Shown here one piece after another: positions 1-64,000 of a stretch of 64,000 nucleotides of DNA (positions are counted from its first letter, which is position 1; each line of letters opens with the position of its first letter). The stretch lies in assembly GCA_000004985.1 (NCBI GenBank), contig GG738875.1. One strand, written 5' to 3'. The notes beneath the pieces were generated by a model. That model saw nothing but the letters and a program-made list of their open reading frames with translations. It searched no databases and had not been told where the DNA came from. Position numbers and translations under genes: made by a program. Source of the stretch: Naegleria gruberi. Taxonomy: Eukaryota.

Positions 1-739
1 CCATCCTTATTCAAGTCAAACATGTCAAACACTCCTCTCATATCCTCAGCACTTGCTTGGTCAGAAAATTGAATTGGTGTTTCATTACCTCCCTTCTTGA
101 TTGGAGGTAGCTTATCGGAATTAAGTCGTGAACCATTTGTTGGTGATTTACTTCTTGAAATTGGTAGGGGAGATGTTGGACTTGTTGGCACAAGGTTCTT
201 TTTTGAAGAAAATAGGCCTTTGAAGGATAAGGTGCTAGATTGTTGCGAAGAAGGTTTACTTGCAGCCTCTTCTGCAAGGGAATGTCTTCTTGAGGTTGAT
301 GGTGGGAATTCAGGGGCAAGGGAATTTCGTTTTGTAGACAAAGGGTAGTATGATGGTGATACCACACTCTTTCTTCTTGTAGGTAAGGTTTTCATAGTAT
401 CCATTGTTGGTGCTTTCATTATTGTACAGAATTCATCAAAAGATATTACACCCTTCTTGTGTGTTTGTATTTCAGACATGATATCATCCATATCATTCAT
501 TGTGACTTCATGACCCAGAGCGCGTAATGTATTTAATAATTCGTCTTTTCCTATGTATCCATCTCCATCCTTATCAAAAAGACGAAATGTTTGATGAAAA
601 AGAATCCTTTCTGTGTTGAGGAGTAGAAGCAGTTTATAAATAATCATGATCAAAAATGCTTACCCTCAGAGGAAATGTCAGAGGTTGTTAGTGAAGGTGT
701 AATAAATCTTATTGGCGTGTTGTTAGGAGATCTTTTCAT
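1..739 (-). CDS. EF-hand calcium-binding protein, 5' part (CDS continues beyond the window start). Model: join(complement(664..739),complement(<1..610))
   Basis: The minus-strand ATG at 739 has an in-frame stop just upstream. Exon 1 is 76 nt and ends ...TCT GAG G, followed by GTAAGC. A 53-nt intron spans 611..663 and ends at an acacAG acceptor. Exon 2 stays open to position 1 (checked codon by codon). It encodes the EF-hand loop FDKDGDGYIGKDEL with a partner loop (THKKGVISFDEF), then an S/T/P-rich linker of about 120 aa, then a new EF loop (FDMFDLNKDG) at the window edge. The ORF track omits it because it runs off the edge. Confidence 0.6.
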
Positions 740-889
740 TTTTTTTTCTTTTTATTCAGAAAGACACTATGAACCGGCGTTAAGGTAGTAATATAGGAAA
801 TTGGCTTTGAAAAAGTAAATAGGTTCGCACTTTTGATCAAATAATGAAGAGATATACTTCAATTGTTAATTTATTTACAAACAATTCAT

Positions 890-3800
890 TTACTGCGTGC
901 TGCCGAGAAGGGCAACACCTCTCAACTTCCACTTTGATTTATCTTCCAAACAATTAAGTTCAACATTGAAGATAAAGGTCAAGTCACTACGATTCTTATT
1001 TCTATACACTGGGCATGTGTAAGAGTTCTTCTTCTTTTCTTTTTCCTTATTCTTATCATTAGCAGCAGCAACATTTGAATCCTTAGCAAAGGCAGAAATG
1101 TGAATAACAGGTAATTTGCAAGTGAGGATTTTTGGTAGAGATTCAGTGAGTCTTGCTGAAGCCTTATCCCAACCAGCACCTTCCAAAGATAAACCATGGA
1201 TGTAAACACCTTCACTTGGAGGTTCAATTACATCTTTTTCTTCCATCTTGGTAACTTCAGTCTTGAGTACGACATCATCAAGAGCCCAACCTCTGGCTCT
1301 AGCTACTTCTTGTTGTACAGCTGTCAAGAAACCTTGTGGATTGTAGAATCCTGTTAATTTGAATGAGTTTGGTCTTCCTTCAGTGAGCCACTTGAATAAT
1401 TGGTCATGTCTGGTATCAAGTTCATTGAACCACAAACCAATAGTTTGGGACTCCCAAGAGAATTTCTTCCAAATATCTGGAACTCTACCATCGTAAATAT
1501 TATTCAAAATATCAGATAAACCAGCACTCATGATGATAGCACCATCAATGGCCAGCTTTAAATTGGTAAGATCGGCTCTTACCATACCAATAAGCTTTTG
1601 CAATCTATCAATTTCTTGACTAAGGAAAACGTTCAATGAATTTCTATCAAAACCACCTTGCTTCTTAATTTCAGAATCAACCATATCACGTTTGAAATCT
1701 GGTGGAAGTCCCTTCAAAAATTCATCAGCCTTCTTGAAAACGTTATCTTCTCTTGTTTCTCCGGCGCCACCAGCACTTTCCTTTGGTTGAACATCGAGGA
1801 TTGTTGACAATACTGACTTTGATTCATCAGTTCTGTAGTTAATATCAGCATTAGGGTGCAAGCCAAATACTTCAGGGTTATCAATTTGAGGAATTTGCTT
1901 TTCAATAAATTCGACAAATTGTTCCTTATCTACTTCAGTGATAACTTTTTCAGCACTAACGAAAGGAATTGTGTAACCATCATAAAATTTAAATTCAACC
2001 TTTGCAACATCAGGAGATAACCACTTTTCACCATAGGTCTTGAATAGTTGTCTGTCTCTTTCGTCAGTAATCTTACCACCATAGTGTACATCGCAAATCA
2101 TGTATCTAATAGTTGGCCAACTGATGGATCCCTTCTTGATATCATCACCTATTGAAGCAAAGTGATTTTGCATGAACATTAAGGAAGCACTCAAGTCAGC
2201 AAAGTTGAATTCATAAGGAATATTCCATCCCAAGTAACCAAACTTCTTTCTTTCAGAAACAACAGAGCTCAAGAAACACATTGTGTAAATGAGTGGTTTC
2301 CATTCTGGTCTCTTTGATGCATCTAACATATCTTGTGTGACCCATTCAAAGGCGTTCTTCATACCTGCCTTCACACCAACATCGCCTTCAAGAGTAAGCT
2401 TAATAGATGTTTGAAGTAAGCCAATTGGGAATTTTGGATGAGGTTCGCTAGTAACCCAAATTCTAAAGTCTGGATGTATATTTTCAGCATTCTTAATCAT
2501 ATCTTCAATAAGACTGATAAATTTCAAACCCAAGTGACAGTTTTGTAATAATACCCAACTACCAGTGGAGAAACCAGTTTGAATATATTCTGTAGCTCTT
2601 GGTTCCTGCCCTTGACCCATAGAAATGGCTAACACATCCTTCTTGTGGTGTCTGGCCAAGCCTTCAATTGCTGAAGTTGGATCAGAACCAGGACTCAACA
2701 AACAAACAAATGGCGTCTTGTTATCACTTTCCTTCCAGACGTTATCCAAGTTGATAGGTACAACGTCTAAGTACTTTTGGCCAAGTGCTGATCTAATATA
2801 TTGCATAGCAGCAAGGATGGTTCTGTCTTCTCTCAATGAACGAATAAGTAACAATTTTTCAAAATCTGTCAGGTTACTATATTCTGGGACCTTTGTTTCT
2901 TCAGGCTTTTCTTCGTCATAGAACTTCTTCCATAACTTGTCATTCTTGTGCATTTTTTCTGGCAATTGTTTGAATGTTTCAATAGAGAACAAGCTCATTA
3001 CATTCAACCAGTTAACATCAGGTAACCAGTCAACCTTTTGTCTAACTTTAGACAAGTCAAGCAAAGAACCTCCTCTTAATAGAGTACTGAATTGTTCAAA
3101 GTCTAATTTTCCTTCTCTTAATTGAATCTTACAAGTGAGCAATAGTAAGAATAAGAACTTGTGTCTCTTGAAAAGACCTCTGCTTGTGTATCTGTAAATA
3201 ATGAAGGTACATGATTCCTTAATATTAATAATTCTTTGAGAGGCAACAGGAGCAGGAGCTGCAGTCTTAATACCTCTATCAAAGAGAATCAAGAATTGAT
3301 TCAATGAAGTTTGGTACATAGGATTGACCAATGACATTTCAACAATCAAGAAATAGAGAACAGAACCTCTGATAGCAACATCTTCATATTCCATTCTAGC
3401 CTTATTGATTCTTTCCTCAGTATCTTTTGCATTTACAAGCTTTTCCTTAATTTCAGCTGCTTGCTTCTTTGTTTGGGCTAATACAGCAATCAATACTTCA
3501 TCTTCAATAAGAGACTTGTCTGATTCTTCAGAAAGTTTTGACAACAATTGGGCTTCAAGATCAGCCATGACTTGTTGGTTACCGTTAATATCTTCCAAAA
3601 TCTTTTCTCTTTGTTCTTCCAGTTCAGCCTTTTCTTGTTGGATAACATAACCCAAAAGCTGTTGTTCCAACCCTTTCATGGTAACTGTAAAGTCAATAAT
3701 GTTGCACTTAGCAAACAACTCAGGAGTAAAGTTAGGATTGGCAATCTTTGTTGTCAAGAACAACTTGAATCCATCATCGTAATCAATAGCCTTATCTTGA

Positions 3801-6800
3801 ATGATGATTTGCTTTTGTTTACCAGTCATAACGAATGACTTTTCCAATAGAGGATCAAGCATAGGATCAATTTCTTCTTCCACATTTTCAATGATAAGTG
3901 GACGACCATTTGAAATGGCATCTTCAAGTTGATTACGGAAGTACTTGTCAGTCAATCTAACAATTAAGAGACCTTGTTTTTCAAACTTCTTCTTCAACCA
4001 GGCTAAACCTTGTCCTTGAGGATCAACCAACAAAGCCCACTTAGAGGACTTTGTCAACATGATAGCATTTTGAATTGAGTGGGAGTCAGTTGGTAAGCCT
4101 TCAAGATTCCATGCACCTATTTGAGCTTCAGTAGTCAACAAATCTACAATCTTATCCTTCTTTTCATTTTTATCTTCTTCTGTTACAGGAATATCTTTTT
4201 CTTTACAATCAGCATAGAAACATTTGGAGAGCAAAATCTTACGGAATTCACTGTTAAAAGGTCCACAGTAAGAAATAAAAGCACAAGCGAGTGCAACATC
4301 ACCAGTTAACTTTCTCAATCTATCAGAGAATTGTTTGGATTGAATACCCCATCTTTCACTTTCTCCGCCAAGAGATGAAATAAGACTGGTTGCTTGTTCC
4401 ATGAACTTTCTTGTCTTTTCAGCATCTTCTTCGAGAAGTTCCTTTTTTCTTGTTTCTTCTTCGAAAACTCTTTGCTTTTCTTCAAATTCAGCGATGACCT
4501 TATTCAATTCTTCCATCTTCTTATTCAGTTGTGCAGTAGCGATAGCAAGAGTTTCTTCAGCTTCTCTAAGTCTTTCTCTCTTTGGTCTAACTTCCTTTTC
4601 TACGTTGTGATATTCAGCCATAGCACGAACCCAAGTACACAAATTTGAAGCAGCTGAACTTGATGATTTGATGATATCATATGTAAAGAATGAGTAATTA
4701 ATATAAGGCATCAACAATTCTACAGTTTCATCTGTAATTTCATCTTGCTTAAATTGTTGGATACCTTTCAAGAAACCAGCGTCAGCAGTCATCTTTTGAG
4801 CGTTAGAATATGAGTCTTCAATTATGGCACCCAATTTTTCGTCATTAATAATTTTAACATCATTGATTGGGAATTGTCTCAAGATGAGAACACCATCAAA
4901 TACGGTTTTAATGGCTTGAGCAGGAACTGTATAGGCCTTGACAGTTTGAATGTCTTTTGGTTGAATTGAAGCAACAGCCTTTTCAGCTCTTTCCAGGGCT
5001 GGTTTAGCTTTTTCTAAATCTGCTAAAGCTTCCTTCTTTTGAATTTCAACCAAGTTATGCTCCTTTTCAATAATATCCTTTTCTTTTTCTACTTCAGTCT
5101 TCTTAGCCAATGTCTTGGTCTTGCTTTCGGAAACTTCTTTCATGATCTCTTCAGCTTTGAGTTTGGCTTCATCCAATTTCTTTTCCTTAATCTTCAACTC
5201 AATTTGAAGCTTTTCAACATCTTCCTTTGCTTCATGAAGTTTAGAGAGACCCATAGCAACGTTCTTAGCTTCTTTATCAATTTCAGCATACTTAGCTCTG
5301 TATACGTCCTTATACAACTGTATAAATGATAGGTAAGACTTTGGAGTTGTGTGGACTGCTCTTCTGAATCTTTGGAAGTATTCAGAGGCGACTTCATTAA
5401 TCTTATTGTGTACTGCAGCCATGTGTTTAATCAAACTCTTCTTGACTTCAGGTGTACAATGAATTTCATAATCATCCAAGAATTTCTTGGCAACACTTGT
5501 CAAAGCTTCCTCTGGCCATGGGAAGAACCAATTTACAGAACATCCACTGATAAGAGCAGGGAACTTCAAAGCTCTGCTTCTGAACTTCTCACTAACTGGT
5601 GAGAAGCACAATACAATATGCAAATTATCTCTAACTCTGTTGATAAAGAATCTGTACAAATTATCATAAGTATCATTTCTTCCAATAGTAGTTGGGTATA
5701 AACGTTTAGCAACCATTCTCAAATCGTTAATGATAGAATCAATTTCTTCTTTCATGAATAGACCAGAGACTTCTCCTGAAGATAAGATACTATTAATATA
5801 TTCAAGGAAAGTTTCATCTTTGATTTCGTTATCTGTGAAAATGAAACTGACTGGTTTTCCTTGCAAACCAGCAAGCTTGAACATTTCTCTTAAATCTTCG
5901 AAGAAGTTGTTAGCGTTATAAGTCTTGTGAAGAACAATTTGCTTGATTTCATAGCCTGCAATAAATGAAGAAAGTCTTGTTAATGATTGTTTTCCTGAAC
6001 CACCAACACCGACTAATAAAGCATTACCTCTTGGCATACTCAGAATTCTTGAAATACGAACCAAGTGTTTGAGAGCCATGTCGAAGAGAACCAAGTCCAA
6101 TTTTTTAATATGCTTTCTTTCACCATTGTAATTCTTCATGAATCCTTCAACTCTTTGTCTGAGAGATTCAATTGACTCAATAGGTTCATAAATCTTTGGA
6201 GCTTCTTCAACTACTTCATCAGTGTCCTCATCAACAATAGGATCTCTCAAGAAATTGACAAAGTAATAATTATCAACCTTAGCTAATTCTCTGCCAAAGT
6301 ACTTTTCAGCTGTCTTAACAATGGAATCATCAAACCAAATCTTGTCTTTGACATCATTCAATCTGTCTGAGAAAACTCTACCACATTCGTGTTTCCACAA
6401 TCCCATCAAAATTTGTGGAGTTTTAACAACATCTGAAGGACAGTTCATTAAACCTTGATAGACTCTTGATAAATCTCTCAAGTTGAAAATGTAGTGGAAC
6501 TTCTTTGGAGTTGGAAGCATCTTATCTTGAGTCATTCTCCAGAATTCAATAGTAGCTGGAGTAATGCTTGATGCAAGCTTTACCATTTCATCAGAGAATC
6601 TTGTAGTATTATATCTACCTCTGATGACAGAACCGAAGATTTGGTCAATAGATGCTACAGTAGGAAGTGTAATATTCAAAATAGAGAAGTGTCTCTTCAA
6701 TCTTTCAGGAATATCATTCTTACCACCACCTGGATGGGACATGGCAGCAATAAATTGCAAATCTTCAATATGAATAAATTCACCAATCTTAGTTAAACTG

Positions 6801-9800
6801 TAGAATCCCTTTTCTTCTACAAGTTGTCTTACAATTTCGTTTGTAACTTGATCTCCCCAAGCATTGATTTCTGGCATGTTAATATCGTCAACAAAGACTA
6901 CCATCTTCTTGTTTTGAGGTGGTCCGTAAACTCTGAATCTCTTTTCAATATTGTCTTGAATAGTGAATTGGAAGATGTTGTGTGTTGTTGCAGAAGAAAA
7001 GTTAATCTTCTTATACATCATTGTTTCAGGGTCCAAATTGTACAAGTAGTTTTCAATTGTAACAGTCTTTGCTGTACCAGAACCACCTGTGAACAAGATA
7101 TCCCTCTTTTGTTTAGCCAAGAGTTCAATGATATAGGTTGTTCTTACAGAATCTGAAGTAGGAACGTACAAGGTACTGAATTCAAGAACATCATTTTCAG
7201 GATAATTCCAAGCAGGAATAACAGCCTTCCAATTCTTCCACTTCTTAGATGCAGGATCAACGAAAAAGTCATAAATATTTTCATCTTCACCCATATCAGT
7301 TGGGAAAATGGTTGCCTTGGATTTGATATAATCACTGAATTGTTTTCTCGCCTTTGATTCCAACAAACCACCAATAGACCAAGCAAAGGAATACCAGAAA
7401 AGCATTTCAATATGTTGCTTGTCTAATTTGATTTCTCCCTTATTAGAGTGTTCTTGAATCAACTGTGTAATAATACTGAAACAGGTCATAACTTGATTGA
7501 CTCTAACAACATTCATCACAGACTTAAGCTCTTTCTTAATATAATCAACACCATTGTCAATATGAGTTGTAAATAATGTTCTGACAATAGTTGTTTCTTC
7601 TTCCTTGAACGGAGCGACTGGTACAGAGTCACCAGTTGAAATAGTTTCATTAACTCTTCCTGCGTATCCTTTCAATCTTGATTCTAAAACAGGAGCCCAA
7701 CCAAGAACGGATTCAGAAATATAAATTTGACCAGCTCTAGAAACAGTAGCAGGAGAGGCATTATTCAAGTTTTCGACTTCGAAACACATCTTAACATCTG
7801 GGGACATTGCTAATCTATCACCGTTAGCAAGAGTCAATAACTTGTTATCATCCAAAACAGTGTTCAAATTTTCAATCCAAATAGCATCAACAGGACCATC
7901 ACAATTGATCCAAATGTGTTGCTTTCTTTGTTTGTTTGCTTGTTTCCACAAGTCAGAGAAAATACCGTCAGTCCATTCGTTTGCTACTACATCAAGTTTA
8001 CCAAACATTTGATTAGCTGTAATGGCCTTTGGATTCATTCTAAGTTGTTTATATGTTTTCTCTGGATTGAGAACACTGAGTGTCTTCAATAATATAGAAT
8101 AACAAGCACTTTTACCTGAACTGGCAGCACCGACCACCATGATACCGTGACGAACCAAACAAGTTTCATATAATTGGATCACTTTTTCCACCCAAGGTCC
8201 ATGATTTTCAAAACCATTTTGTTTGATTTGTTGTTCAAGTTGCTTTTCAAGTTCTGGAAAACGTCTCTTTTCTGCAACAATTGAAGGGAACAAGTCTTCT
8301 ACAAGAGAATTGAACAAGCTAACGTCTTCAGCGACCAATTTAGAAGTGTTCATGTCTCTGAGAGTTCTCATGAGCAAGAAGTGTTCTGATTTACCAATGT
8401 TAGCTCTCATTGTTTCACCAGCAGTTCTCAAAACTGACAAAATATTTCTGAGACCAAAATCGTAGTGAGCTTGTTTTGAAAGCTGTTGTTCACAAAGTCT
8501 GTACAAGACATCGAACTTCTTTGATAATGGTTCGTTCTTCTTGTAACCAGCAGCAGCTAACTTGACTCTAATAATAATTCTTCTGTCAGGAACCATCATA
8601 GTGACACCTCTAAACAAAACCTTCAAGTTTTCTGGAAGTTCTTGACGTCCTTGATAACCAGGATTCATAGTAATAAACATGGCTGTCTTGTCATTCAATT
8701 TACATGGTTTACCATCTGTAAAAACGAATTTCTTTTTACCATCTCTCAAGGTTGACAGAATGGATTGGACTTGTTGAGCAACGACAGACAACACTTCAAG
8801 TTCAATACGATTGAATTCGTCGAAACAACCCCAAGAACCACTTTGAGCCAAACCTCTAAAGATTTTACCCATAGCTCTATAATCCATTTGATCTGAACAG
8901 TTAAAGACAACTACATATTTACCAAGAGTTCTACCCAAATCTTTAACAGTTTCTGTTTTACCTGTACCGGCTGGACCAGCTGGAGCACCACCTAACTTCA
9001 AACCGATGGCTTGAGAGAGGGTAAGATAACATCTGTCGGTCAAAGGTGTAATGACCAGTCTTTCCTTACAACCCAAATATTCATAACAATATTCTTGATC
9101 GATATCTGCAATAGAAACAATACAAGTATCTTGATCTGGTTTCCAATAGAATCTGGCTTGTTTTTGCCAATCAAAATTAATAGTGTCCTTAACTCTATCT
9201 CTTAAAAGTTCACCGAAAACGTCACGTTGGTGAACTTGAATTGTAATAAGAGTTTCAACCTTTGTTCTTTCCAAAGGAGTCAATTCTCTTGTTGTTAAGG
9301 TTGTAAGTTCATCAAGAATAGTTGAAATTTTAGCATGGGTATTAGACATTGCTCTCTTATCAGACTTGGCTGAATTCAAAGCATTTTCACATTGTACTGT
9401 CCACACGAATTGAATACCAAGAATAGTAACTTGAGCAGGATACTTTTCAATGAAACTAGTGAGTGACATTGTGTTACATTCTTCAGCAGCATCTCTGACA
9501 ATGAAACGAAGAGTTCTTTGCATTTCTTCTTCGAGTTTTTGTAACCAATCTTCAACGTTACCTGCAGCTACAACAGCATCATTAAGAGGAACAATTTCTC
9601 CTTCAGGGGATTGCATACTCAAAATCTTGTTGTCTTGTCTAGCATCGAAAGTAACCTTTGAAATAGAGTCGAAAATTGTAATCAAAGCAGGTTGAATAGC
9701 ATGAGGATCAGATGATTGAGACAAGATTTCCAACAAAGCAGTGTCAGAGTTGAAATAGAATCTTGGGAAAATATCTCTCTTTTGTTCCAAATAACCAGCC

Positions 9801-53033: not shown

Positions 53034-53741
53034 TTTTTTTCAGTGCGCCTAGTTTTCTAGAAGGATTGAAATATGCTGTTTGTTTCAAATATTCGTTGAA
53101 GATTATAAAGAATAATAAATGGTAATTACAATAAATGGTGAAGAGGTTGCGGCAACGTGCTACGAAAGATATTTTGTTGGTGTGTTGTTTTTTTGTTATC
53201 GGAGGATTTTTGATTTACAGTAGTAATTGGTTTGTGTTGCTTAATAAAAACGTGGGGAAAAAAAGACTGAATAATTGGCTTTCTTGCCTGTATAAGAGTA
53301 AAAGACTACAGCACCACAGGTTCCCAAGTTGTCTCCAACCTCAGTACTGATGTGGCTCTACGATGCTTAACTTCTCAAATCGGACGGGATGAGGTGCATT
53401 CATCGTGATATGGCCGTAGCCATTCATTATATGAAAATTATGATATTGAACGAGTACAGAAATTATGTTTATATTTTATTTCAGTCATCGTTGGATGAAA
53501 TATTTGAATGATACGAAAGGTGAAAGTGTTAATGAAAATCCACCTTAATCCTCATTCAAGTTTCATTCAAATCCAACATTGTAAACTGGCAAACTAGCTT
53601 CCACTTTTCCAATCACCTTCCAATAACACTCCATTTTTAATTTGAGCCACTAAATGATTTAAATTGCCTCCGGAGCTCAAGAATACTCCACACAAAAAAA
53701 CAGCAACAATATTCAACATTCTTCATACAAAAGAATACAAA

Positions 53742-54530
53742 ATGCTTTTCCAACAACCTGTACATACTGGCAGCAATTTTACCATTCCATTTGATGGAAC
53801 CATTGAAAAATTCACCTCTACCTTTCCAATATCTTTAGTGAATAGAGTACACCCCGATCAATTTCAATCTACATTAGAAAAATGTAATTTAGTGATGAAG
53901 AAGCATATGGACAAGATTAAAGAGAGTGATAAGAAAGTGTTGTGGGTTATGTTGGCATTCATTGGCTTGATGATATTGTTAATTTTATTTCCAACTCTTT
54001 TCGTTACTGTCATTATTCCTGTTGGTGATTCTGATGCTTGGATTCCTGCAGTTTTCATTCCAATATTTGCATGTATTCCAATGATTGGAATTATTATTTA
54101 TTCATCTCGTAGAATGCAACAAATCAAAGCCATGCATGTAGAATGTAAGAAGGAAGTTGAAGAGCTATTGGCACAAGAGAATTCAATGTACTTCCAATTT
54201 GGTGTTCAATGGATCTTGAGATATGACGGTATTGAAGCTATTGGCAAGGTCAGATATGGTGTCTATAGGCATTTAAATACCATGCCAAGCTTGGAGATTT
54301 TGACCAATCAAGCAATGTATATGGTGCAACAACCTAATGTTATGGTGCAAGGTAGTTCTGACATGATGCCAATGTATCAACAACAACAAGCTATTTATGT
54401 AGTGCCACCAACTAGTCAACCACAACAACCAACAGTTTATGAACAAGAACCACACAGTGTAACTTATCAACAAGTGAATCAATACCAAAAGGAAAATGAT
54501 AATCAACCACTGTTAGGTAATAGAGTGTAA
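53742..54530 (+). CDS. Hypothetical membrane protein with two predicted TM helices and a Gln-rich C-terminus, 262 aa
   Basis: The first ATG (caaaATGctt) in an ORF whose track start 53664 is a TTG. Two adjacent hydrophobic helices (VLWVMLAFIGLMILLILFPTLFVTVIIPV and IPAVFIPIFACIPMIGIIIY). Q/P/Y-rich tail. Confidence 0.4.
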   Translation: MLFQQPVHTGSNFTIPFDGTIEKFTSTFPISLVNRVHPDQFQSTLEKCNLVMKKHMDKIKESDKKVLWVMLAFIGLMILLILFPTLFVTVIIPVGDSDAWIPAVFIPIFACIPMIGIIIYSSRRMQQIKAMHVECKKEVEELLAQENSMYFQFGVQWILRYDGIEAIGKVRYGVYRHLNTMPSLEILTNQAMYMVQQPNVMVQGSSDMMPMYQQQQAIYVVPPTSQPQQPTVYEQEPHSVTYQQVNQYQKENDNQPLLGNRV

Positions 54531-54729: not shown

Positions 54730-55098
54730 ATGCAACAACTTGTGGAGGGGCAGATTTGGACATATCATCATCGTTCTAAAGATGATTCTACATCCCGATT
54801 CACAATTTATAAAATTGACCAGATGGGTGATCATGATGTAGTGCATATCAAAATTTCTGGTGTTCGATTTGCTGGAAAAAAGATGCAAATACAACACATG
54901 CCTTTTACGAGAGAATCTATAGAGCAGAGTGTTATAGAATTGGTTGGAAATATTGATGACTTGAAGGATGAACATTTTACAGATGGATATGAAAATTGGA
55001 AGAAGGAAAGTTTGGAAGGAAGAGCAGGTGCTTGGACTATGAATGTGGATAAAGCAATTGATTTATTGGAGAAGGCTACTACGGGAGCTGATGAATAA
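54730..55098 (+). CDS. Hypothetical small soluble protein, 122 aa
   Basis: First ATG (caacaaaaaATGcaa) inside the track ORF, which starts at TTG 54691. No recognisable domain. Confidence 0.35.
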   Translation: MQQLVEGQIWTYHHRSKDDSTSRFTIYKIDQMGDHDVVHIKISGVRFAGKKMQIQHMPFTRESIEQSVIELVGNIDDLKDEHFTDGYENWKKESLEGRAGAWTMNVDKAIDLLEKATTGADE

Positions 55099-55177: not shown

Positions 55178-56983
55178 TTATTTTACAACCAAGTATTTAA
55201 TCTCTTTTGGAAGAGTAAAGTTTGAAACACCAGTATTAATTGCTCGGATAGATGTGATTTTTGGACAATTTTTGGAAATGCTTAATATGCTATTATTTGT
55301 GATTGGATTTTCACTTAAATCAATCGTCTCCAATAGTGGTAGCTCTTTAGAAATTGCTTCAACAAATTTGTCATTAATATCTTGATTGATAAGTGTGAGA
55401 GTTTTCAAATTTTTGAGTTGGGATAAACGTTCAACACTGAAAATTGGAGTTCTGAAAATATTCAAATCCACCAAATCACACATGACATCTGTGGACACTT
55501 CATGAACTGCTTCATAAGTCCCAAGTTTAAGCTTTTTCAAGGAGGCTATAGTGAGAAGCTCACTAAAACTGTCACCTATTCCGCATGAGGTGATTTCTGC
55601 TGTTTTAATAGGCATTCCTGCAAGATATTTAAGCATTCCTGGCTTGATTTTTTCATGATCCAAGCTAATTGTACTCAACTTTGAACAGGAACTCAAATTT
55701 TCAAAGAATTCTCTTTGAGTATCGTCTGGAGGGCTATCGTAAAGTGTTGTATATCCATGAAGGGAGCCACCATTTTCTCCTTTAAGTATTGATTTGACAG
55801 TTCTAATATTTGGCCAATTTTTAAGAGCTTTTGAAAAGCGGAAAATTGAGGTGACACTTGTTTGAATATCTAAAGTGGTTAATAAAGAAGAATTAGCAGA
55901 AAATTCTGTAAAGTCTTCATCTTTTCCTGCACTGTGACCTCTCCATCTGAATATTCTCAACTTTGGAAATTTAAGTTTACAGAATCTGTTCATTTCACAC
56001 ATATCACTTGAAGGAACTTGAAGGATTGTAACATCTTCCAAATAAGGTGCCATCACTTCCAAGGTTGAAACCAAAACTTCTGAAGGTAATTGTCTTACAT
56101 TAAGACTTGTGATGTTTTGTACAGGTAATAGTTTAAGAGTTTTCTTTGTTTGGGTCAATGCTTGTTGGGAATCTGTGACAGTGGTATCATGTAATAATTT
56201 AACATATGGGACCTTCATTGCAATCTTTGCACCATTGGCTGCCAAGCATTGAGTCATCCTCAAAAGTTCAGATCTATGATACATTTTAGAACCATCCAAC
56301 TCCAATCTTCTAAAGAGAAACTTTGGAGAGTCTCCCTGTCCAGATCTTGTAAATTTACCAAAATACAATTGATTAAACTTTCTAACATTGGAACCACATG
56401 ATTGATCGAATAATCCTCCATAATAGTCCAAAATAATGAGCAACACTTCACTAGGAAGTTTACAAACAAGTCTGTTCAATTCATCTTCCAATTGTTGAGC
56501 TTTAGGAAGTGGTGTTTTTGGTTTCACTGGAACATTGGCAGGTTGTTGCTTACTAACAGGTGGAGCCTTTGTTGTTGATGAGGATGTGGTTGTACTACCA
56601 GTTTTGGTCCTTAATGCTGAAGATGTTTTTGATATGAATGTTGCCTTTGGTGATGAAGATAGACTTGATGGTTTGGAACTTGATGAAACCTTACTAGTAG
56701 TAGTTGTCGCCACAGGTTTGGTTGCACTTGGTAAAGATGATGATGTCTTGCCGGCATTACTTGTTATCTTTGTTACATTACAGCTTGAAGTTGTTGTTGT
56801 TGTGGTTACTGCCTTTGGAGTAGGACTGTTTGACAATGATCTATTATTACTCGTTCCCGAAGAGAATGTCTTTGTACTTGAAGTGGTTGTTGTTGTGCTG
56901 CTGCTAGAAGTTTTGCTTGTTGTTGTTTTTGAGGGAATCTTTGAGGGGGTAGTTGTTGAGGGAGTGGATTTGGTGAGGGCCAT
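55178..56983 (-). CDS. F-box / leucine-rich-repeat protein with a mucin-like Ser/Thr-rich N-terminal region of about 190 aa, 601 aa
   Basis: After the S/T-rich tract comes an F-box-like LPSEVLLIILDY, then degenerate LRRs (LxxLxL, C-terminal ...LETIDLSENPITNNSILSISKNCPKITSI). Confidence 0.5.
   Translation of the reverse strand: MALTKSTPSTTTPSKIPSKTTTSKTSSSSTTTTTSSTKTFSSGTSNNRSLSNSPTPKAVTTTTTTSSCNVTKITSNAGKTSSSLPSATKPVATTTTSKVSSSSKPSSLSSSPKATFISKTSSALRTKTGSTTTSSSTTKAPPVSKQQPANVPVKPKTPLPKAQQLEDELNRLVCKLPSEVLLIILDYYGGLFDQSCGSNVRKFNQLYFGKFTRSGQGDSPKFLFRRLELDGSKMYHRSELLRMTQCLAANGAKIAMKVPYVKLLHDTTVTDSQQALTQTKKTLKLLPVQNITSLNVRQLPSEVLVSTLEVMAPYLEDVTILQVPSSDMCEMNRFCKLKFPKLRIFRWRGHSAGKDEDFTEFSANSSLLTTLDIQTSVTSIFRFSKALKNWPNIRTVKSILKGENGGSLHGYTTLYDSPPDDTQREFFENLSSCSKLSTISLDHEKIKPGMLKYLAGMPIKTAEITSCGIGDSFSELLTIASLKKLKLGTYEAVHEVSTDVMCDLVDLNIFRTPIFSVERLSQLKNLKTLTLINQDINDKFVEAISKELPLLETIDLSENPITNNSILSISKNCPKITSIRAINTGVSNFTLPKEIKYLVVK
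56440..56983. repeat. Low-complexity Ser/Thr-coding tract (acn/tcn repeats)
   Basis: Encodes TTTSKTSSSSTTTTT... on the minus strand. Generates a spurious poly-Val ORF on the plus strand (56535..57008). Confidence 0.5.
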
Positions 56984-57113: not shown

Positions 57114-58097
57114 TCAATTATTCCATTCGAAATGTCCAAAGAGTACTCTTTCGCCATTGATTGAGTCCACGATTTGTTGCCAAACTGGTTTGGAATTGTG
57201 AGGGCTGGTCTGAGGATGAAAGTGAGTATCTAATTGGAAAATGTAATAGTAAATACAAATGAAATGAAGTAAAATTCCACCAACTGAAAACAAGTGCCAA
57301 ATGGCATGTGAGAAGGGAATTATTCCATCACCATTCAAGAAGTAAATTCCACCTGAGAAGAAAAATCCTCCACCAAATAATGCAAAATAAGCTTCCAAAG
57401 GGATATGAATAAACATTGAAGAGGGAATGGCTACTAGAGCTACCCAACCCATAATATTAAAAAGAGTACCATTCGAAACGAATGTAATCATTCTTCCTTC
57501 AGAAAATGATTTAGTAAGCCCACAAAATGCCAAACACCAAACAAAAATTGTTAAAAACTTTCCATACATATTCTCATTTCCCAATTCCAAAATCATCAAG
57601 AATGGTGTGTAAGTGGCTGCTATAAAGATATAAATTGTTGCATAATCTACAATTCTGAACCAGTATGTTTTGTGTGAAAACTTTCCAAACACCAAACACA
57701 TGACATGATACAAAGTTGACACGAAAAACAATGTAAACAGTGTCATGCAGTAGAGTATGGATGAAATTCGTTCCTCAATACTATTCACCACATGTTCATT
57801 TGTTAAGAATAAATAAACAAAAATGAATAATGGAATACCATGAGTGAGAATGTTTGCCGTTTCCTCAATTTTTGATGGTTCATAATCTTCCACATTCAAA
57901 CTATCAGGAAATTCATTCATGAATATTTTACACATCGGGCAACAAGTCACTGGTTTTTGTTTGTAAATAATTTCATCCACCAATTTGAACTGTTTCTTTT
58001 CTGATGCTGTTTCATGATTATTTTCTGTATTTTCGTCATGATGACAACCACTGTGATGATGACAAGGGGAAGGGTCACCCTTTTTTCGTTCTCTCAT
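57114..58097 (-). CDS. PAQR / hemolysin-III family seven-TM receptor, 327 aa
   Basis: Seven hydrophobic helices. Conserved HAIWHLFSV motif before the last helix. The N-terminal tail is His/Cys-rich (CHHHSGCHHDEN). Confidence 0.7.
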   Translation of the reverse strand: MRERKKGDPSPCHHHSGCHHDENTENNHETASEKKQFKLVDEIIYKQKPVTCCPMCKIFMNEFPDSLNVEDYEPSKIEETANILTHGIPLFIFVYLFLTNEHVVNSIEERISSILYCMTLFTLFFVSTLYHVMCLVFGKFSHKTYWFRIVDYATIYIFIAATYTPFLMILELGNENMYGKFLTIFVWCLAFCGLTKSFSEGRMITFVSNGTLFNIMGWVALVAIPSSMFIHIPLEAYFALFGGGFFFSGGIYFLNGDGIIPFSHAIWHLFSVGGILLHFICIYYYIFQLDTHFHPQTSPHNSKPVWQQIVDSINGERVLFGHFEWNN

Positions 58098-58184: not shown

Positions 58185-58703
58185 CTATTTTCTCTTTGGT
58201 GGTTGAGATGCTAAAATCTTTTCAACAGTAAAATCAATTTCCCATCTTTCTAACATTCTTTCAATAGCAACGAGTGGTACACCATGCTTATTTCTCTTTG
58301 CTAATTCTTGTGCATTCTTAGCCCAAGGAGTAGTTGGTTCTGTAATTTCTACCACATAAGAATTGGCCTTTGCAGCTACAACATATGGTTTAGCTTCCCA
58401 CTTTTGTGTATTGGTATTATCGATTATTATAGGAGTGGTTCCATTCTTCATGGCATCGGAAGCTCTTTTCTGATTCCATTGATGGGCCTTTCCAAGTTGT
58501 GTAGCATCAAAATTATAATTTCCAGTCTGTGGATCCACAAAATAATCATCAGTGGAAAAGATATGATCTTTATATCCTGTTGTATAATCAATTCCGTGAT
58601 TTTTCATAATTTCTGATGCAAGAGTACTCTTTCCACTTCCAGAAATTCCTCTCAACAAGATCATTGTTTTACCATTAGATGATGATGAATTAGTTGCTGA
58701 CAT
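58185..58703 (-). CDS. P-loop kinase of the AAA_33 / N4BP2L / PNK-like family, about 172 aa
   Basis: Walker A LLRGISGSGKSTLA. Aspartate-rich DxD region (FSTDDYFVD). Start chosen at caaaaaaaATGtca (58703, MSATNSSS...). The track start 58772 (MQFNKIY...) is an upstream in-frame alternative. Confidence 0.55.
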   Translation of the reverse strand: MSATNSSSSNGKTMILLRGISGSGKSTLASEIMKNHGIDYTTGYKDHIFSTDDYFVDPQTGNYNFDATQLGKAHQWNQKRASDAMKNGTTPIIIDNTNTQKWEAKPYVVAAKANSYVVEITEPTTPWAKNAQELAKRNKHGVPLVAIERMLERWEIDFTVEKILASQPPKRK

Positions 58704-59123: not shown

Positions 59124-59726
59124 ATGGCTCAATACCACCAACCGACCTTGAAGAGTTTCAATAAGAAAATTTCTTTCGAAAATATTGATAATATTAAATT
59201 ACATATTGCTAGTAGTCCATTCACAGTTTCACCTGGCGATGAGGAGAAACACAACTTGGTTCCAATCTTTCAGTCAGTAATTTCATCCTTCCTATTTTCC
59301 ATTTGTTGCTTATTTGCTCATCTTTCCCCTGGTAATTTCTTTGATGAAACTGAAACTCTAATGAATGCTCTTTGTTCAGTGTTTGTGTTGAGTTTCGGAT
59401 TCTGTATGTACGTTATGATCAATGCATCGTGTCTTCAGATGGTAAGGGATGGATTTGTTAGTCTTCCACTAGTTAGCATTCATCCAAAGGCTAATCAATT
59501 ACTCATTTGGTTATCTAGAATTTTCAAAGTGTTTTTGGGATTGATTGTTTTGTTCAATGAGATTAAGAAGGTGTTCAACATTGAGGGAATAGTGCTTGAG
59601 ATGGAGTTACTCTCCTATATCATTCTATTGAGTCACATGTTTTGTGCCTTATTATTATTGAATATATATTTTTGTTTCTCTATTCAATCAAGAGAAAGAA
59701 ACTACTCTTCCGAAAGTTGTGTTTAA
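59124..59726 (+). CDS. Hypothetical small multi-pass membrane protein, paralogue A, about 200 aa
   Basis: Start aaaaATGGCTCAATACCAC is shared with paralogue B. About 4 hydrophobic helices. Shares the C-terminal block VLFNEIKKVFNIEGIVLEMELLSYIILL with paralogue B. The track ORF begins 51 nt upstream at another ATG (59073). Confidence 0.5.
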   Translation: MAQYHQPTLKSFNKKISFENIDNIKLHIASSPFTVSPGDEEKHNLVPIFQSVISSFLFSICCLFAHLSPGNFFDETETLMNALCSVFVLSFGFCMYVMINASCLQMVRDGFVSLPLVSIHPKANQLLIWLSRIFKVFLGLIVLFNEIKKVFNIEGIVLEMELLSYIILLSHMFCALLLLNIYFCFSIQSRERNYSSESCV

Positions 59727-59839
59727 TAATAATAAAGAAAATTTGATCCTTATTATCGATAATTATTATTCATTCCTTTCATTATATGAATCAATAACAT
59801 ATTGAGAAGAGTTTCATTGAGCCTTGCAAATAGTAAAAA

Positions 59840-60409
59840 ATGGCTCAATACTACTACAAGTCTAAGGATGGTAATGATCACAACGAATTACTTGTTTCAT
59901 TAGAGGAGAAACAGAAAGTTAATCCATTCTTTGAAATCATTCGTGAGAGTTTATTATACTTTATATTCTCAGTGAGTTGCATGTTTGTTCTACTTTCCTC
60001 AAGTGAATTCTTCAGTGGCTCAAAGTATTTTTATGCTCCTTATTCTAATTTATTATTCTCTTTAATAATGATGATTATCGGGCTTGGCATATATGAAACT
60101 CTCAAATTTAGTTGTTTGTTCATCCTTTCGCAAGAGTACATCTTCTTCTCCAATAATTCAGTTGATTTTCCATCCTCCTGCTTTGCAATATTTTCCATCT
60201 CAAGCTATTTCAAAGTAATCGTTGGTTTTGCTGTTCTATTTGGAGAAATCAAGAAGGCTTTCGAAATTAATGAACTTGCATTATTCTTTAAGATTTGTGA
60301 CAATATCGTTCTGTGGAATCATGTAGCATGTACACTTGTTCTATTGGAATTATTTCTAATTTTCAAATTCAAAAAGTCAAAATTCCTCCCATCACATGAT
60401 TTAGTTTGA
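59840..60409 (+). CDS. Hypothetical small multi-pass membrane protein, paralogue B, 189 aa
   Basis: Start aaaaATGGCTCAATACTAC. Same architecture as paralogue A, with the conserved block VLFGEIKKAFEINELALFFKICDNIVL. It lies 113 bp downstream of paralogue A on the same strand. Confidence 0.5.
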   Translation: MAQYYYKSKDGNDHNELLVSLEEKQKVNPFFEIIRESLLYFIFSVSCMFVLLSSSEFFSGSKYFYAPYSNLLFSLIMMIIGLGIYETLKFSCLFILSQEYIFFSNNSVDFPSSCFAIFSISSYFKVIVGFAVLFGEIKKAFEINELALFFKICDNIVLWNHVACTLVLLELFLIFKFKKSKFLPSHDLV

Positions 60410-60479
60410 GTAAGATTCATAGTTGCTTGCATTATCAAATGGCAATAAATCCTCTATAGGTATGAAGTTAAGAACTTCT

Positions 60480-61313
60480 TTATTTTCTCAAAGTTACAAC
60501 ATTTCCAGTGCAAACGAATTGAATTTGACCATTTTGTGGTTGATATTCTGTTTCAATTCTGGCATGGATCTTACTCAACCATTCCTTCTCCAAAATGGGA
60601 TCTATTTGTGGTCCGAATTTTCTCTTCACCATTTCTGAGAATTGAGTGCTTGATTTCACTATTTCCATCATAACTTCGAGTGGACACTCAAATTCTTTGG
60701 TTACCTGTTCAATATCTATGTGAGAAAAACCAGCTTCCTTGCACAAGGTTTCGAAATGTTGTGGATCCTTGAGTGAAAACATGGCTCCTTGTGGTCCTCT
60801 TTCTAAATCAAGAGTATCATATGCAGCATTTAATGGAATTCTCAAGGGGAATGCCTCTGTCCATGAGTTTACCAAGGCAATACCTTGTTGTTGCATTACT
60901 CTGTGAATTTCCTTCAACCCTCTTAATATATCCTTGTATAACATAATTCCCATATTGGAATAGACAACGTCAAATGAATTGTCTTCATATTTCAAATCTT
61001 GTCCATCCATGATATGAAATTTCAAGGAAGAAACATTTGAAGATGTGTTAGAAATCTTGGAATTTGCTCCTTGAATGTAATCTTCTGAAATATCAATACC
61101 ATCAATACTCAACTTGAAATCCGTTCCGTTTAAAATAGTCTCATTCTCAAACTTGAAAGGCAACAATCCAGTTCCAGTTCCAATATCCAAAATCCTAACA
61201 TTTCTGTCCTTTGTTGAGTTGAAATAAAGAGTGGTGGATCGTTGAATAAGATCATCTGCAAAGAATTCTTGCACAACTCTGGTGAGTTCCATAAACTTGA
61301 TTTTTTGATTCAT
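60480..61313 (-). CDS. Class I SAM-dependent methyltransferase, 277 aa
   Basis: Motif I VRILDIGTGTG. Post-I acidic residue (IDGIDISEDY). Motif II/III region FDVVYSNMGI. Confidence 0.7.
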   Translation of the reverse strand: MNQKIKFMELTRVVQEFFADDLIQRSTTLYFNSTKDRNVRILDIGTGTGLLPFKFENETILNGTDFKLSIDGIDISEDYIQGANSKISNTSSNVSSLKFHIMDGQDLKYEDNSFDVVYSNMGIMLYKDILRGLKEIHRVMQQQGIALVNSWTEAFPLRIPLNAAYDTLDLERGPQGAMFSLKDPQHFETLCKEAGFSHIDIEQVTKEFECPLEVMMEIVKSSTQFSEMVKRKFGPQIDPILEKEWLSKIHARIETEYQPQNGQIQFVCTGNVVTLRK

Positions 61314-61863: not shown

Positions 61864-63291
61864 ATGCTCAAACAAAACCTGAGACATGTATTATCGCCAT
61901 CATCGAGGAAGACATTGATTCAAAAGATCAATTGTTCTTCTTCAAGTAGTAGACCATCGGCTATGATGGTTGTTTTCAACAGCAAGAATCAAGAAATTGT
62001 CTCTACAAGAAATTTCTCATCATCTAGTATTCAAAATTTGCTCAATGTTAGCAAGAGTAGAAAGGATGAAGTTTTTCCAGTATTGAATATGAATAGTAAT
62101 ACCATCAATGTTTATCCATCATCATTAAAGCCTAGCATAACCTCTTCATCATCATATAATTACTCGACCACAGTTTTTAATCATCCAGAAGAACAACAAA
62201 AATTTGAAGAAGAAATTCCAGGACGTAAAGCTGTTTTAATATGGCTCGGAACATTGAGTTTCCTTGTTTTTACAATTGTTATTGTTGGTGGTTTAACTAG
62301 ACTGGAAGAAGGTGGTCTTTCAATGGTTGATTGGTCATTCATGGGTTCACTTCCTCCAATCACACAAAAGGAATGGGAAGAAGAATTTGAAAAGTACAAA
62401 CAATTCCCTGAATATAAGAAGAAGAATGAAGGAATGACTGTTGAGGAATTTAAATACATCTTTTACTATGAATATTACCATCGTATGCTGGGAAGATTGA
62501 TTGGTGCTGTTTACACAATTCCAGCTATTGCATTTGCTGCTAAGGGATTTTTCTCTGGTAAGAGAAGAGTCATGTCACCTTGGACAGTTCTTGCTATAGG
62601 AAGTGTCATTGGTTTCCAAGGTCTTTTGGGTTGGTATATGGTTAAGAGTGGTCTCGATGAAAATCATGAACTCATGAAGAAGTATAATAGCATTCCTCGT
62701 GTATCTCAATATCGTTTGGCTTCTCACTTGTGTACTGCCTTTGTAATTTATGCCATGACTTTGTGGAAGAGTTTCGATTTGGCTACCAAGAATAAGACTG
62801 TTGAAACCTTTGCTGGTAGCTCAATTTTCAAGATGGTTGCCCCAATTTTCTTCTCCCTTGTTTTCTTGACTGCTGCTTCTGGTGCTTTTGTTGCTGGTAT
62901 GGATGCTGGTTTGGTTTACAATGAATTCCCACTCATGGGTGGTGCTGTTGTTCCAAGTGACATCATGGCTATTGAACCATGGTATAAGAATTTCTTTGAA
63001 AATGCCACTACTGTCCAATTCCAACACAGATGGTTGGCAACCTTTGTAGCAACAGCTATTGCTGCTTTCTGCTTCTATTTCAAGAAGGGTGACAAGGGTA
63101 AACAATTGCCTGCTACTGTTAAGAAGTCACTCAATTATTTGCTTGCTGTTGTTACTGCCCAATACACTCTTGGTATCACTACTTTATTGACCTATGTTCC
63201 AACATCAGTTGCCTCAGCTCACCAAGCTGGTTCATTGACTTTGTTCACATTTGCTTTATGGATGGCTCACGTTGCTAAGAGAATTAGATAA
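61864..63291 (+). CDS. COX15: Heme A synthase COX15 (mitochondrial inner membrane), 475 aa
   Basis: N-terminal Ser-rich presequence. The stretch GGLTRLEEGGLSMVDWSFMGSLPP...EFKYIFYYEYYHRMLGR...GLLGWYMVKSGLDE...IPRVSQYRLASHL...LTAASGAFVAGMDAGLVYNEFPLMG...VQFQHRW...THQAGSL aligns along its length with human and yeast COX15. Confidence 0.9.
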   Translation: MLKQNLRHVLSPSSRKTLIQKINCSSSSSRPSAMMVVFNSKNQEIVSTRNFSSSSIQNLLNVSKSRKDEVFPVLNMNSNTINVYPSSLKPSITSSSSYNYSTTVFNHPEEQQKFEEEIPGRKAVLIWLGTLSFLVFTIVIVGGLTRLEEGGLSMVDWSFMGSLPPITQKEWEEEFEKYKQFPEYKKKNEGMTVEEFKYIFYYEYYHRMLGRLIGAVYTIPAIAFAAKGFFSGKRRVMSPWTVLAIGSVIGFQGLLGWYMVKSGLDENHELMKKYNSIPRVSQYRLASHLCTAFVIYAMTLWKSFDLATKNKTVETFAGSSIFKMVAPIFFSLVFLTAASGAFVAGMDAGLVYNEFPLMGGAVVPSDIMAIEPWYKNFFENATTVQFQHRWLATFVATAIAAFCFYFKKGDKGKQLPATVKKSLNYLLAVVTAQYTLGITTLLTYVPTSVASAHQAGSLTLFTFALWMAHVAKRIR

Positions 63292-63582
63292 ATTTTTGAA
63301 GACACCACTAATTTTGGAATTTGAATGTTAAATATAGGGTATAGATATTAAATAAACACTAAAACAGATAAATTTTGATACGTTTATGAATGGTGTTCTA
63401 ATGACAACGATACTATATTTGCAGATATTGTTATCTTAATAAAGATGAATAATATACTAAGATTTAAAAAAACTTGGTGTTGTTTGTTTACAATATTGAT
63501 AGATTGATAACAATTTGAAATCAACTAAAAAACTCATTCCTATCCTGATTCTCAATATCTTTTGATTGCAGACAGAAAAAAA

Positions 63583-64000
63583 ATGCAAGAAAATACTTTC
63601 ACTGAATACACTTGTAGAAGAGCCGTCATTGGTGATGCACCATCAATTACCGATTTTAACATTAGAATGGCACTTGAAACGGAAGGAATTAACTTAACAC
63701 CATCAATTGTAAAACGTGGAGTGGAAACAGTTTTTGAAAGGGAAGAAAAAGGAAGATATTATGTTGCAACCATTTCGGAAGGAGATAATGAAAAAGTTAT
63801 TGGATCATGTTTGATAACTATGGAATGGAGTGACTGGAGATGTTGTGATTATTTTTATTTACAAAGTGTTTTTATTGAACCAGAACATAGAAGAAAAGGT
63901 GTCTTTAGTCTATTGTATAAATTTGTGGAAAGTGAATGCATCAAGGCAGGCACTGCTTCTCTGAGACTCTACGTTGATAAAGGAAATGAAAAGGCAAAGC
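63583..64000 (+). CDS. GNAT-family N-acetyltransferase, N-terminal part (continues past the window end)
   Basis: ATG after gaaaaaaa (coordinate +/-1). Acetyl-CoA-binding motif A region (LQSVFIEPEHRRKGVFSLLY) in an open frame that runs to the window edge. Not in the ORF track because no stop is found within the window. Confidence 0.55.
   Translation, partial: MQENTFTEYTCRRAVIGDAPSITDFNIRMALETEGINLTPSIVKRGVETVFEREEKGRYYVATISEGDNEKVIGSCLITMEWSDWRCCDYFYLQSVFIEPEHRRKGVFSLLYKFVESECIKAGTASLRLYVDKGNEKAK

Follow-up and report, generated by a model that had tools for sequence, protein, structure and literature searches.

Gene content of the window

The window, by which we mean the whole 64-kb stretch of DNA analyzed here (positions 1 to 64,000), carries 28 protein-coding genes on both strands and one 5S ribosomal RNA (rRNA) gene, with about 88% of its bases coding. 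Our subject is the architecture of these genes: the short predicted introns that divide ten of them and the start codons from which they would be read. The window has a GC content of 34.1%, without strong skew, and two 13-kb dynein genes, made up of a single or a few exons, occupy 42% of its length. Eukaryote-specific content includes axonemal dyneins, 20S proteasome beta-1/6, a SNARE, cornichon, an Ariadne-type RBR E3 ubiquitin ligase, deoxyhypusine synthase, and COX15, and Pfam scans added a PAQR/haemolysin-III protein, a short-chain dehydrogenase (SDR), a methyltransferase, and a GNAT acetyltransferase. A scan of the window for transfer RNA genes found none, and in the Rfam scan of the window the 5S rRNA gene was the sole match, with no intronic small nucleolar RNA above threshold.

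The original prediction, made from the sequence alone, had described the window as compact eukaryotic nuclear DNA. We arrive at the same reading because the gene content, the exact RefSeq matches to Naegleria gruberi proteins, the synteny with Naegleria lovaniensis, and the GT-AG introns, several of them conserved in position, agree. In its specific form, this reading makes the window almost certainly a 64-kb piece of a nuclear chromosome, carrying short GT-AG introns, from N. gruberi NEG-M or a near-identical strain.

Short predicted GT-AG introns in ten genes

Gene models were built by reading three-frame translations wherever open reading frames (ORFs) on the same strand abut or an ORF has no ATG. 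This route led to 16 GT..AG introns, spread over 10 genes, whose removal restores the frame; they measure 37, 39, 42, 42, 42, 45, 46, 47, 48, 49, 51, 53, 55, 74, 134, and 139 nucleotides (nt), so that 13 of the 16 are no longer than 55 nt. The dynein heavy chain gene DHC2 has four; the SHIPPO, SNARE, and g44266 genes have two each; and the EF-hand, Ariadne, SEL1, PSMB1, cornichon, and MFS genes have one each. The ten genes and their introns are as follows, with product lengths in amino acids (aa).

1..739, minus strand: EF-hand protein gene, exon 1 at 739..664 and exon 2 at 610..1, running off the left edge; Pfam EF-hand_7, 1.1e-15
611..663, minus strand: putative EF-hand intron, 53 nt, GTAAGC..ACACAG, phase 1, linking the ATG exon to the EF-hand ORF
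14812..16473, plus strand: SHIPPO/PG-rich-repeat protein gene, 3 exons; Pfam SHIPPO-rpt
15575..15613, plus strand: SHIPPO intron, 39 nt, GTAGGT..TTTTAG, phase 1
15658..15699, plus strand: SHIPPO intron, 42 nt, GTGAGT..GAATAG, phase 0
16624..17858, minus strand: syntaxin-like SNARE gene, 3 exons, 369 aa, spliced product identical to XP_002675932.1; the Pfam SNARE domain crosses the second junction
16743..16793, minus strand: SNARE intron, 51 nt, GTAAGT..CAACAG, phase 1, supported by RefSeq identity of the spliced product
17423..17496, minus strand: SNARE intron, 74 nt, GTAAGG..TAATAG, phase 2, the sole frame-restoring GT..AG pair between its two ORFs, likewise supported by RefSeq identity
25479..27134, minus strand: Ariadne-type RBR E3 ubiquitin ligase gene, 2 exons, 536 aa; ARIH2/ARIH1 structure matches at 7e-95
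26127..26171, minus strand: Ariadne intron, 45 nt, GTATGT..AAATAG, phase 0
27603..30344, plus strand: SEL1/Hrd3-like repeat protein gene, 2 exons, 899 aa; the syntenic N. lovaniensis gene (904 aa) has Sel1 repeats
28344..28385, plus strand: SEL1 intron, 42 nt, GTAAGA..AATTAG, phase 0; the N. lovaniensis tblastn alignment breaks at residue 247/248, with a 53-nt gap
30396..43921, plus strand: DHC2 axonemal dynein heavy chain gene, 5 exons, 4446 aa
30723..30770, plus strand: DHC2 intron, 48 nt, GTAAGT..AATTAG, phase 0
30864..30909, plus strand: DHC2 intron, 46 nt, GTAAGC..AAAAAG, phase 0
31411..31452, plus strand: DHC2 intron, 42 nt, GTATGT..CTCTAG, phase 0
31628..31676, plus strand: DHC2 intron, 49 nt, GTATGT..CATTAG, phase 1
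44266..46437, plus strand: AAA_22-like ATPase gene g44266, probably 3 exons, with a C-terminal C-x2-C-x11-H-x3-C finger; a predicted model whose product is not among the deposited proteins
45829..45883, plus strand: putative g44266 intron, 55 nt, GTAAAT..CTAAAG, phase 0, linking a 525-codon ORF to an ATG-less open frame
46047..46093, plus strand: putative g44266 intron, 47 nt, GTAAGT..TGAAAG, phase 1
46537..47347, minus strand: 20S proteasome beta-1/6 (PSMB1-type) gene, 2 exons, 223 aa, spliced product identical to XP_002675936.1; PDB match at 2.5e-73
47150..47288, minus strand: PSMB1 intron, 139 nt, the longest in the window, GTAAGT..TCTTAG, phase 2
48941..49491, minus strand: cornichon/Erv14 gene, 2 exons, 138 aa; matches positions 2-122 of the 122-position Pfam Cornichon model in one stretch and aligns with the Erv14 structure
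49289..49422, minus strand: cornichon intron, 134 nt, GTAAGT..ATACAG, phase 0; the Erv14 and Pfam alignments are gap-free over residue 23/24
51017..53033, minus strand: MFS transporter gene, 2 exons, 659 aa, spliced product identical to XP_002675938.1
51643..51679, minus strand: MFS intron, 37 nt, the shortest in the window, GTAAGT..TGTTAG, phase 1

All 16 introns have the GT..AG ends of the U2 type, and all 16 restore the reading frame when removed. The donors are GTAAGT (six), GTATGT (three), GTAAGC (two), and GTGAGT, GTAAGG, GTAAGA, GTAGGT, and GTAAAT (one each); 14 introns have G at donor position +5 (GTAAGN, GTATGT, GTGAGT, and GTAGGT), which GTAAAT lacks. Acceptors are TAG in ten cases, CAG in three, and AAG in three. 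Retention of an intron would bring an in-frame stop in 15 of the 16, while the remaining one, of 37 nt, shifts the frame. The introns have 14 to 32% GC, compared with 35% for the exons. At further consensus donors (16451 at the SHIPPO 3' end, 46384, 61687, 61804, and 20114), we found no credible acceptor or exon that would make an additional intron. These figures come close to the original prediction, which had counted 17 introns in nine genes but listed no junctions, so that the two sets cannot be matched one to one. Its length range of 37 to 140 nt agrees with the 37 to 139 nt found here; its donors (GTAAGT, GTATGT, or GTGAGT) account for 10 of the 16 but not for the GTAAGC, GTAAGG, GTAAGA, GTAGGT, and GTAAAT sites, and its YAG acceptors hold for 13 but not for the three AAG sites.

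Support from outside the intron's own sequence, in the form of a gap-free homologue alignment, an intron at the same N. lovaniensis position, or a deposited spliced protein, is available for 13 of the 16 introns. Nine junctions are colinear with homologues without a gap (the four of DHC2, those of Ariadne, MFS, PSMB1, and cornichon, and the second SNARE junction). Elsewhere, support comes from the N. lovaniensis tblastn break for the SEL1 junction, from the N. lovaniensis orthologue P0180 for the two SHIPPO junctions, and from RefSeq identity for the first SNARE junction. In the syntenic N. lovaniensis locus, all six comparable introns (four in DHC2 and one each in Ariadne and SEL1) lie at the same position.

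The DHC2 junctions were checked against fragments of homologues of its N-terminus, up to 726 aa long and at about 39% identity, and in the alignment to 8 homologues there was no gap at any of the four. All four introns are present in N. lovaniensis at identical positions and with GT..AG ends, although their lengths have changed, and their sequences are about 50% identical, compared with about 75% in the exons. The N. lovaniensis DHC2 orthologue has 4447 aa and carries DHC_N1, DHC_N2, and AAA domains. For Ariadne, the junction ..TANTK|DCPKCN.. is gap-free against human ARIH2, and the intron occupies the identical position in N. lovaniensis; over its entire length, the spliced protein shares 88% identity with C9374_005816 of that species, and it is 78% identical to a Willaertia magna protein. 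The PSMB1 junction ..SPYEDNGG|TTLAIPG.. is gap-free against solved beta-subunit chains, and the MFS junction ..MDEMVP|IFASNS.. is gap-free against the intronless orthologues of N. lovaniensis and Naegleria fowleri.

The SHIPPO gene contains a mini-exon of 44 nt (15614-15657) whose residues are conserved in the N. lovaniensis orthologue P0180 (ENYIYFGDKLSANKE in the window, VDFIFFGDKLSNHKD in N. lovaniensis). The junction KE|SMRVPGP also occurs in XP_002675856.1, and the partial model XP_002667959.1 begins precisely at that exon boundary. We also considered a single 135-nt intron (15575-15709); it was ruled out, as the mini-exon residues are kept in N. lovaniensis and in two more distant homologues and RefSeq has two introns. 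At the C-terminus, the N. lovaniensis orthologue ends in ..GKFGGLS, the same as the unspliced reading in the window. The window protein is identical to XP_002675856.1 except for 7 residues; the donor is the same, and the RefSeq acceptor lies at about 15634, 21 nt downstream. The RefSeq model thereby omits ENYIYFG, of which the N. lovaniensis orthologue retains the equivalent, VDFIFFG. Because of this retention, the RefSeq model is probably slightly wrong, or else the two acceptors may be used alternatively.

In g44266, the CPKC...H...C finger would gain its first Cys codon (T|GT) by removal of 46047..46093. We observed that an AAA_22-like ATPase is here apparently joined to a finger via two short introns; the spacing of the finger resembles that of the Rad18/UBZ4 type. 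The 3' end of the gene is uncertain, since the tail past the finger looks poorly coding.

It is very unlikely that sequencing frameshifts or lesions of a pseudogene, instead of introns, account for part of the frame breaks. The window does contain one probable single-base frameshift, at the 3' end of the dyskerin gene (20326-20342, minus strand). The proposed introns, however, all have GT..AG ends, measure 37 to 139 nt, and are markedly AT-rich, and six of them have a counterpart at the identical N. lovaniensis position that has diverged in sequence and changed in length. Alignments become gap-free once they are removed, and a frameshift error would not require the removal of 37 to 139 nt.

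Start codons and their A-rich context

We then tabulated the six positions upstream of 28 starts, using the deposited start where one is known and otherwise the model's first ATG, with all 2438 ATGs in the window as background. AAAA stands directly 5' of 18 of the 28 starts compared with 1.6% of all ATGs, at least four A within −6 to −1 were counted for 22 of the 28 (13% of all ATGs), and A occupies −3 in 26 of the 28 (36% of all ATGs). A Mann-Whitney test gave a P value of 2e-13; at that stage, two starts had yet to be shifted to the second ATG, which is the annotated one. The ATG of the EF-hand gene, for example, is preceded by aaagaaaaaaaa. At 58703 and 59124, RefSeq passes over an earlier in-frame ATG in favor of the one that follows an A-run; at the former, the annotated start of the AAA_33 kinase-like gene is the second ATG, preceded by aaatcaaaaaaa. 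It also prefers an ATG over an upstream TTG in two genes (53742 and 54730). Eight starts lack AAA at −3 to −1, namely those of SNARE, dyskerin, SEL1, SDR, methyltransferase, Ariadne, g24618, and DHC1 (AAAACA). The strong enrichment thus upholds the A-run context proposed in the original prediction, while these eight exceptions contradict its wording that every confident start follows such a run.

The same prediction had warned that the M opening many ORFs in a track made under bacterial start rules is a TTG in the DNA, naming seven positions, and all seven are TTG. Six were confirmed at 14476 and 17385 on the minus strand and at 31709, 46087, 50002, and 53664 on the plus strand. The seventh, at 14447, is on the plus strand (GAATTGG), within an 84-codon open frame (14435-14686) that is antisense to the other dynein heavy chain gene, DHC1, and lies outside the frame of that gene.

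Bacterial rules yield 47 ORFs of at least 100 aa, 20 of which have TTG or GTG as first codon. Ten of these 20 codons are in frame within real genes, and none of the ten is a true start; the other ten ORFs are spurious, antisense or off-frame. Four of the in-frame codons lie upstream of the real ATG (DHC1, SDR, g53742, and g54730), and six are the first such codon in an open frame carrying an internal exon (SNARE, DHC2 twice, g44266, cornichon, and MFS). In DHC1, the true ATG at 14392 is 28 codons downstream of the track TTG at 14476; exon 5 of DHC2 is a track ORF with its apparent start at TTG 31709. In this window, a rule that takes the first ATG, GTG, or TTG past a stop prolongs ORFs upstream to meaningless TTG or GTG codons, chops spliced genes into pieces, and calls antisense ORFs inside long genes.

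Such artifacts are present in public protein calls. In the protein collection that we searched, genes called in prokaryotic style on the Naegleria DNA of metagenome and Logan assemblies include the two halves of the SHIPPO gene (P0198 and P0200), a SNARE exon running into its intron (P0202), PSMB1 minus its first exon (P0206), and the last MFS exon alone (P0209). The claim that a bacterial reading would misplace starts and split genes is therefore justified, with 10 genes interrupted.

For the window to be bacterial or archaeal DNA, the TTG and GTG starts would have to be real and neighboring ORFs would have to be separate operon genes. The coding fraction of about 88% and same-strand ORFs that abut or overlap, such as 51017-51649 and 51630-53033, would suit such DNA. 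Against this, the machinery is specific to eukaryotes and has eukaryotic homologues, the ORF pieces become colinear with homologues only once GT-AG segments are taken out, the proteins include some identical to Naegleria RefSeq entries, and deposited models use no TTG position, with none of the ten in-gene TTG or GTG codons serving as a start. We consider the probability of a prokaryotic origin to be practically nil, and the reading as eukaryotic nuclear DNA is kept in what follows.

Identity to deposited N. gruberi proteins

Ten window proteins are identical, residue for residue, to N. gruberi RefSeq or UniProt entries, all of which map to one 396,166-bp contig. With the SHIPPO protein as query, a profile-free search also matched N. 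gruberi entries at 100% identity. For three of them, identity is obtained after intron removal (SNARE with two introns, PSMB1 and MFS with one each), and the other seven are identical unspliced (dyskerin, deoxyhypusine synthase, KTI12, g53742, g54730, AAA_33, and g59073). The corresponding N. gruberi NEG-M annotation spans entries EFC43112-EFC43196, XP_002675856-XP_002675940, and UniProt D2VIZ6-D2VJ15.

Composition fits as well. A GC content of about 33 to 35% is expected for N. gruberi, below that of N. fowleri and N. lovaniensis, and the 34.1% of the window falls within this range. The published Naegleria GC values agree with this figure, and the gene density fits too (PMC9928731). The same source gives a genome-wide coding fraction of 57.8%, which the roughly 88% of the window exceeds mainly because the two 13-kb dynein genes fill 42% of it.

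Several observations weigh against our reading. Splicing at the 16 junctions is a prediction, and three of the introns (EF-hand 611-663 and g44266 45829-45883 and 46047-46093) are proposed by sequence logic alone. The deposited SHIPPO model chooses the acceptor at about 15634 over the one at 15613. In addition, exact lookups in the protein collection found no match for Ariadne, SEL1, g44266, cornichon, SDR (from ATG 50005), DHC1, COX15, or HlyIII. For the shorter of these products, the deposited models probably differ in the choice of start or splice site; the missing DHC1 match may reflect the coverage of very long proteins in the collection, because the dynein search gave no match longer than 726 aa.

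Comparison with other genomes

In N. lovaniensis, a syntenic block on the 639-kb contig PYSW02000025.1 (C9374_005807-C9374_005822) shares with the window the order DHC2, SEL1, Ariadne, KTI12, dyskerin, and M16 peptidase. This locus has 37.6% GC, compared with 34.1% in the window, and contains three extra genes (an Arf GTPase, a 429-aa protein, and a B-box/NHL protein) without counterpart at 22-28 kb of the window.

L001 7774-9831 and 14675-17341: extra-gene segments of N. lovaniensis, set against 22-28 kb of the window

In the N. lovaniensis Ariadne gene (L001 10952-11224), residue 345 is followed by another intron, of about 61 nt, that is missing from the window gene, and the intron that the two share is about 140 nt long in N. 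lovaniensis but 45 nt in the window.

The MFS protein is equally distant from its N. lovaniensis and N. fowleri orthologues, with 49 to 50% identity to each, which places the source of the window outside the pair formed by these two species. Both orthologues (L002 10001-12133 and L003 10001-12229) are single-exon genes without the 37-nt intron, that of N. lovaniensis being located away from the syntenic block, elsewhere in its genome, and no synteny was found between 44-63 kb of the window and the surroundings of the MFS orthologues in the two species, the neighborhood being wholly different. Because the orthologues are intronless and their neighborhoods completely different, the comparison points to a lineage-specific gain or loss of the MFS intron plus a rearrangement.

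The gene-dense genomes of Schizosaccharomyces, Dictyostelium, and chytrids likewise have donors of the GTAAGT or GTATGT type, YAG acceptors, introns of about 40 to 140 nt, and A-rich starts. These short-intron genomes were an early lead; identity and synteny point specifically to Naegleria.

A giant virus or other mobile DNA infecting or residing in Naegleria might also be AT-rich and gene-dense, and the 34% GC, the very short intergenic spacers, and the mostly intronless genes of the window would suit such an element. Every exact match, however, lies on one 396-kb nuclear scaffold of N. gruberi, and the gene order is common to the 639-kb N. lovaniensis contig. The genes of the window are housekeeping and flagellar ones (dyneins, proteasome, COX15, and 5S rRNA), and Pfam scans of the window proteins found no capsid or viral hallmark genes. 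We regard a viral or mobile origin as extremely unlikely in comparison with a place on the host chromosome.

The other genes and the 5S rRNA gene

The remaining genes of the window are listed below; those ending or beginning beyond its limits are marked.

890..14392, minus strand: DHC1, outer-arm gamma/DNAH5-type axonemal dynein heavy chain gene, single exon, 4500 aa, 17 dynein Pfam domains
18578..20059, minus strand: M16 peptidase gene, mitochondrial-processing-peptidase-like, single exon, HFLEH motif; the syntenic N. lovaniensis gene has Peptidase_M16
20319..21791, minus strand: dyskerin/Cbf5 gene, single exon, product identical to XP_002675934.1; the syntenic N. lovaniensis gene has DKCLD, TruB, and PUA
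22065..22928, minus strand: KTI12 gene, single exon, product identical to XP_002675935.1; the syntenic N. lovaniensis gene has PF08433
23210..24490, plus strand: membrane protein gene, 426 aa, weakly similar to the C-terminus of Glyco_transf_18
24618..25343, plus strand: membrane protein gene g24618, 241 aa, no family assigned in the Pfam scan
47668..48816, plus strand: deoxyhypusine synthase gene, single exon, Pfam DS 8e-121, product identical to XP_002675862.1 (labelled strain NEG-M)
50005..50958, plus strand: SDR gene, Pfam adh_short, start ATG uncertain; no deposited protein equals the product read from ATG 50005
53303..53421, minus strand: 5S rRNA gene, Rfam RF00001, 106.5 bits over the full model length, followed by a TTTT run
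53742..54530, plus strand: membrane protein gene g53742, 262 aa, identical to XP_002675864.1 from ATG 53742, not from track TTG 53664
54730..55098, plus strand: g54730, gene for a 122-aa protein, identical to XP_002675865.1 from ATG 54730, not from track TTG 54691
55178..56983, minus strand: gene for a protein of 601 aa, Ser/Thr-rich in its N-terminal part, without Pfam match
57114..58097, minus strand: haemolysin-III/PAQR family gene, Pfam HlyIII
58185..58703, minus strand: AAA_33 kinase-like gene (Pfam), product identical to XP_002675940.1 only from ATG 58703
59124..59726, plus strand: membrane protein gene g59073, first tandem paralogue, identical to XP_002675866.1 only from ATG 59124 (second ATG, after an A-run)
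59840..60409, plus strand: membrane protein gene, second tandem paralogue, from its translation
60480..61313, minus strand: class I S-adenosylmethionine-dependent methyltransferase gene, from the Pfam scan
61864..63291, plus strand: COX15 (haem A synthase) gene, Pfam COX15-CtaA 2.7e-100
63583..64000, plus strand: GNAT acetyltransferase gene, from the Pfam scan, running off the right edge

The closest structures to DHC1 are the Chlamydomonas outer-arm gamma chain 7kzm_C, which is the best PDB match, and DNAH5. DHC1 and DHC2 lie 16 kb apart in divergent orientation. DHC1 has no introns across 13.5 kb, and the four introns of DHC2 are all confined to the first 1.3 kb of that gene. At the dyskerin 3' end (20326-20342, minus strand), the +1 frame runs on into a lysine-rich tail that is exactly that of the ENA-derived variant P0211 (504 aa), and the RefSeq model keeps the truncated reading. 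TCATCTTTCATCGG has an extra T, which seems to be either a mistake of the assembly or an allele that truncates the protein.

The 5S rRNA gene, which was not mentioned in the original prediction, sits between the MFS gene and g53742, which point away from each other. Adjacent to each other at 59124-59726 and 59840-60409 are two small multi-pass membrane paralogues; both start with MAQY.. and belong to no Pfam family, a local tandem duplication.

Implications

Taken as a whole, the window almost certainly represents 28 closely packed genes on both strands, together with one 5S rRNA gene, on a nuclear chromosome of a heterolobosean amoeboflagellate. Ten of the genes are predicted to be split by very short spliceosomal GT-AG introns of the U2 type, 16 in all. 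Thirteen of these measure 37 to 55 nt; the others are 74 nt and, in two cases, about 135 nt long. Translation most likely initiates at ATGs in an A-rich context, typically aaaaATG, as both the sequence and the deposited models suggest. The locus is already known: it is an ordinary part of the published, annotated N. gruberi genome and brings no new biology. The N. gruberi NEG-M genome was reportedly published and annotated in 2010, in the paper of Fritz-Laylin et al. (Cell 140:631).

It is an even call whether the window exposes small reference errors together with lineage-specific events, as the SHIPPO acceptor, the dyskerin frameshift or allele, the 5S rRNA gene, and the gain or loss of the MFS intron would exemplify. 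The practical value lies in how the other features of the window are read, for which eukaryotic rules are needed: genes are spliced, begin only at ATGs with A-rich surroundings, and do not form operons. It further bears on the contamination of protein databases, into which prokaryote-style calls on Naegleria DNA have deposited truncated or intron-read-through "proteins."

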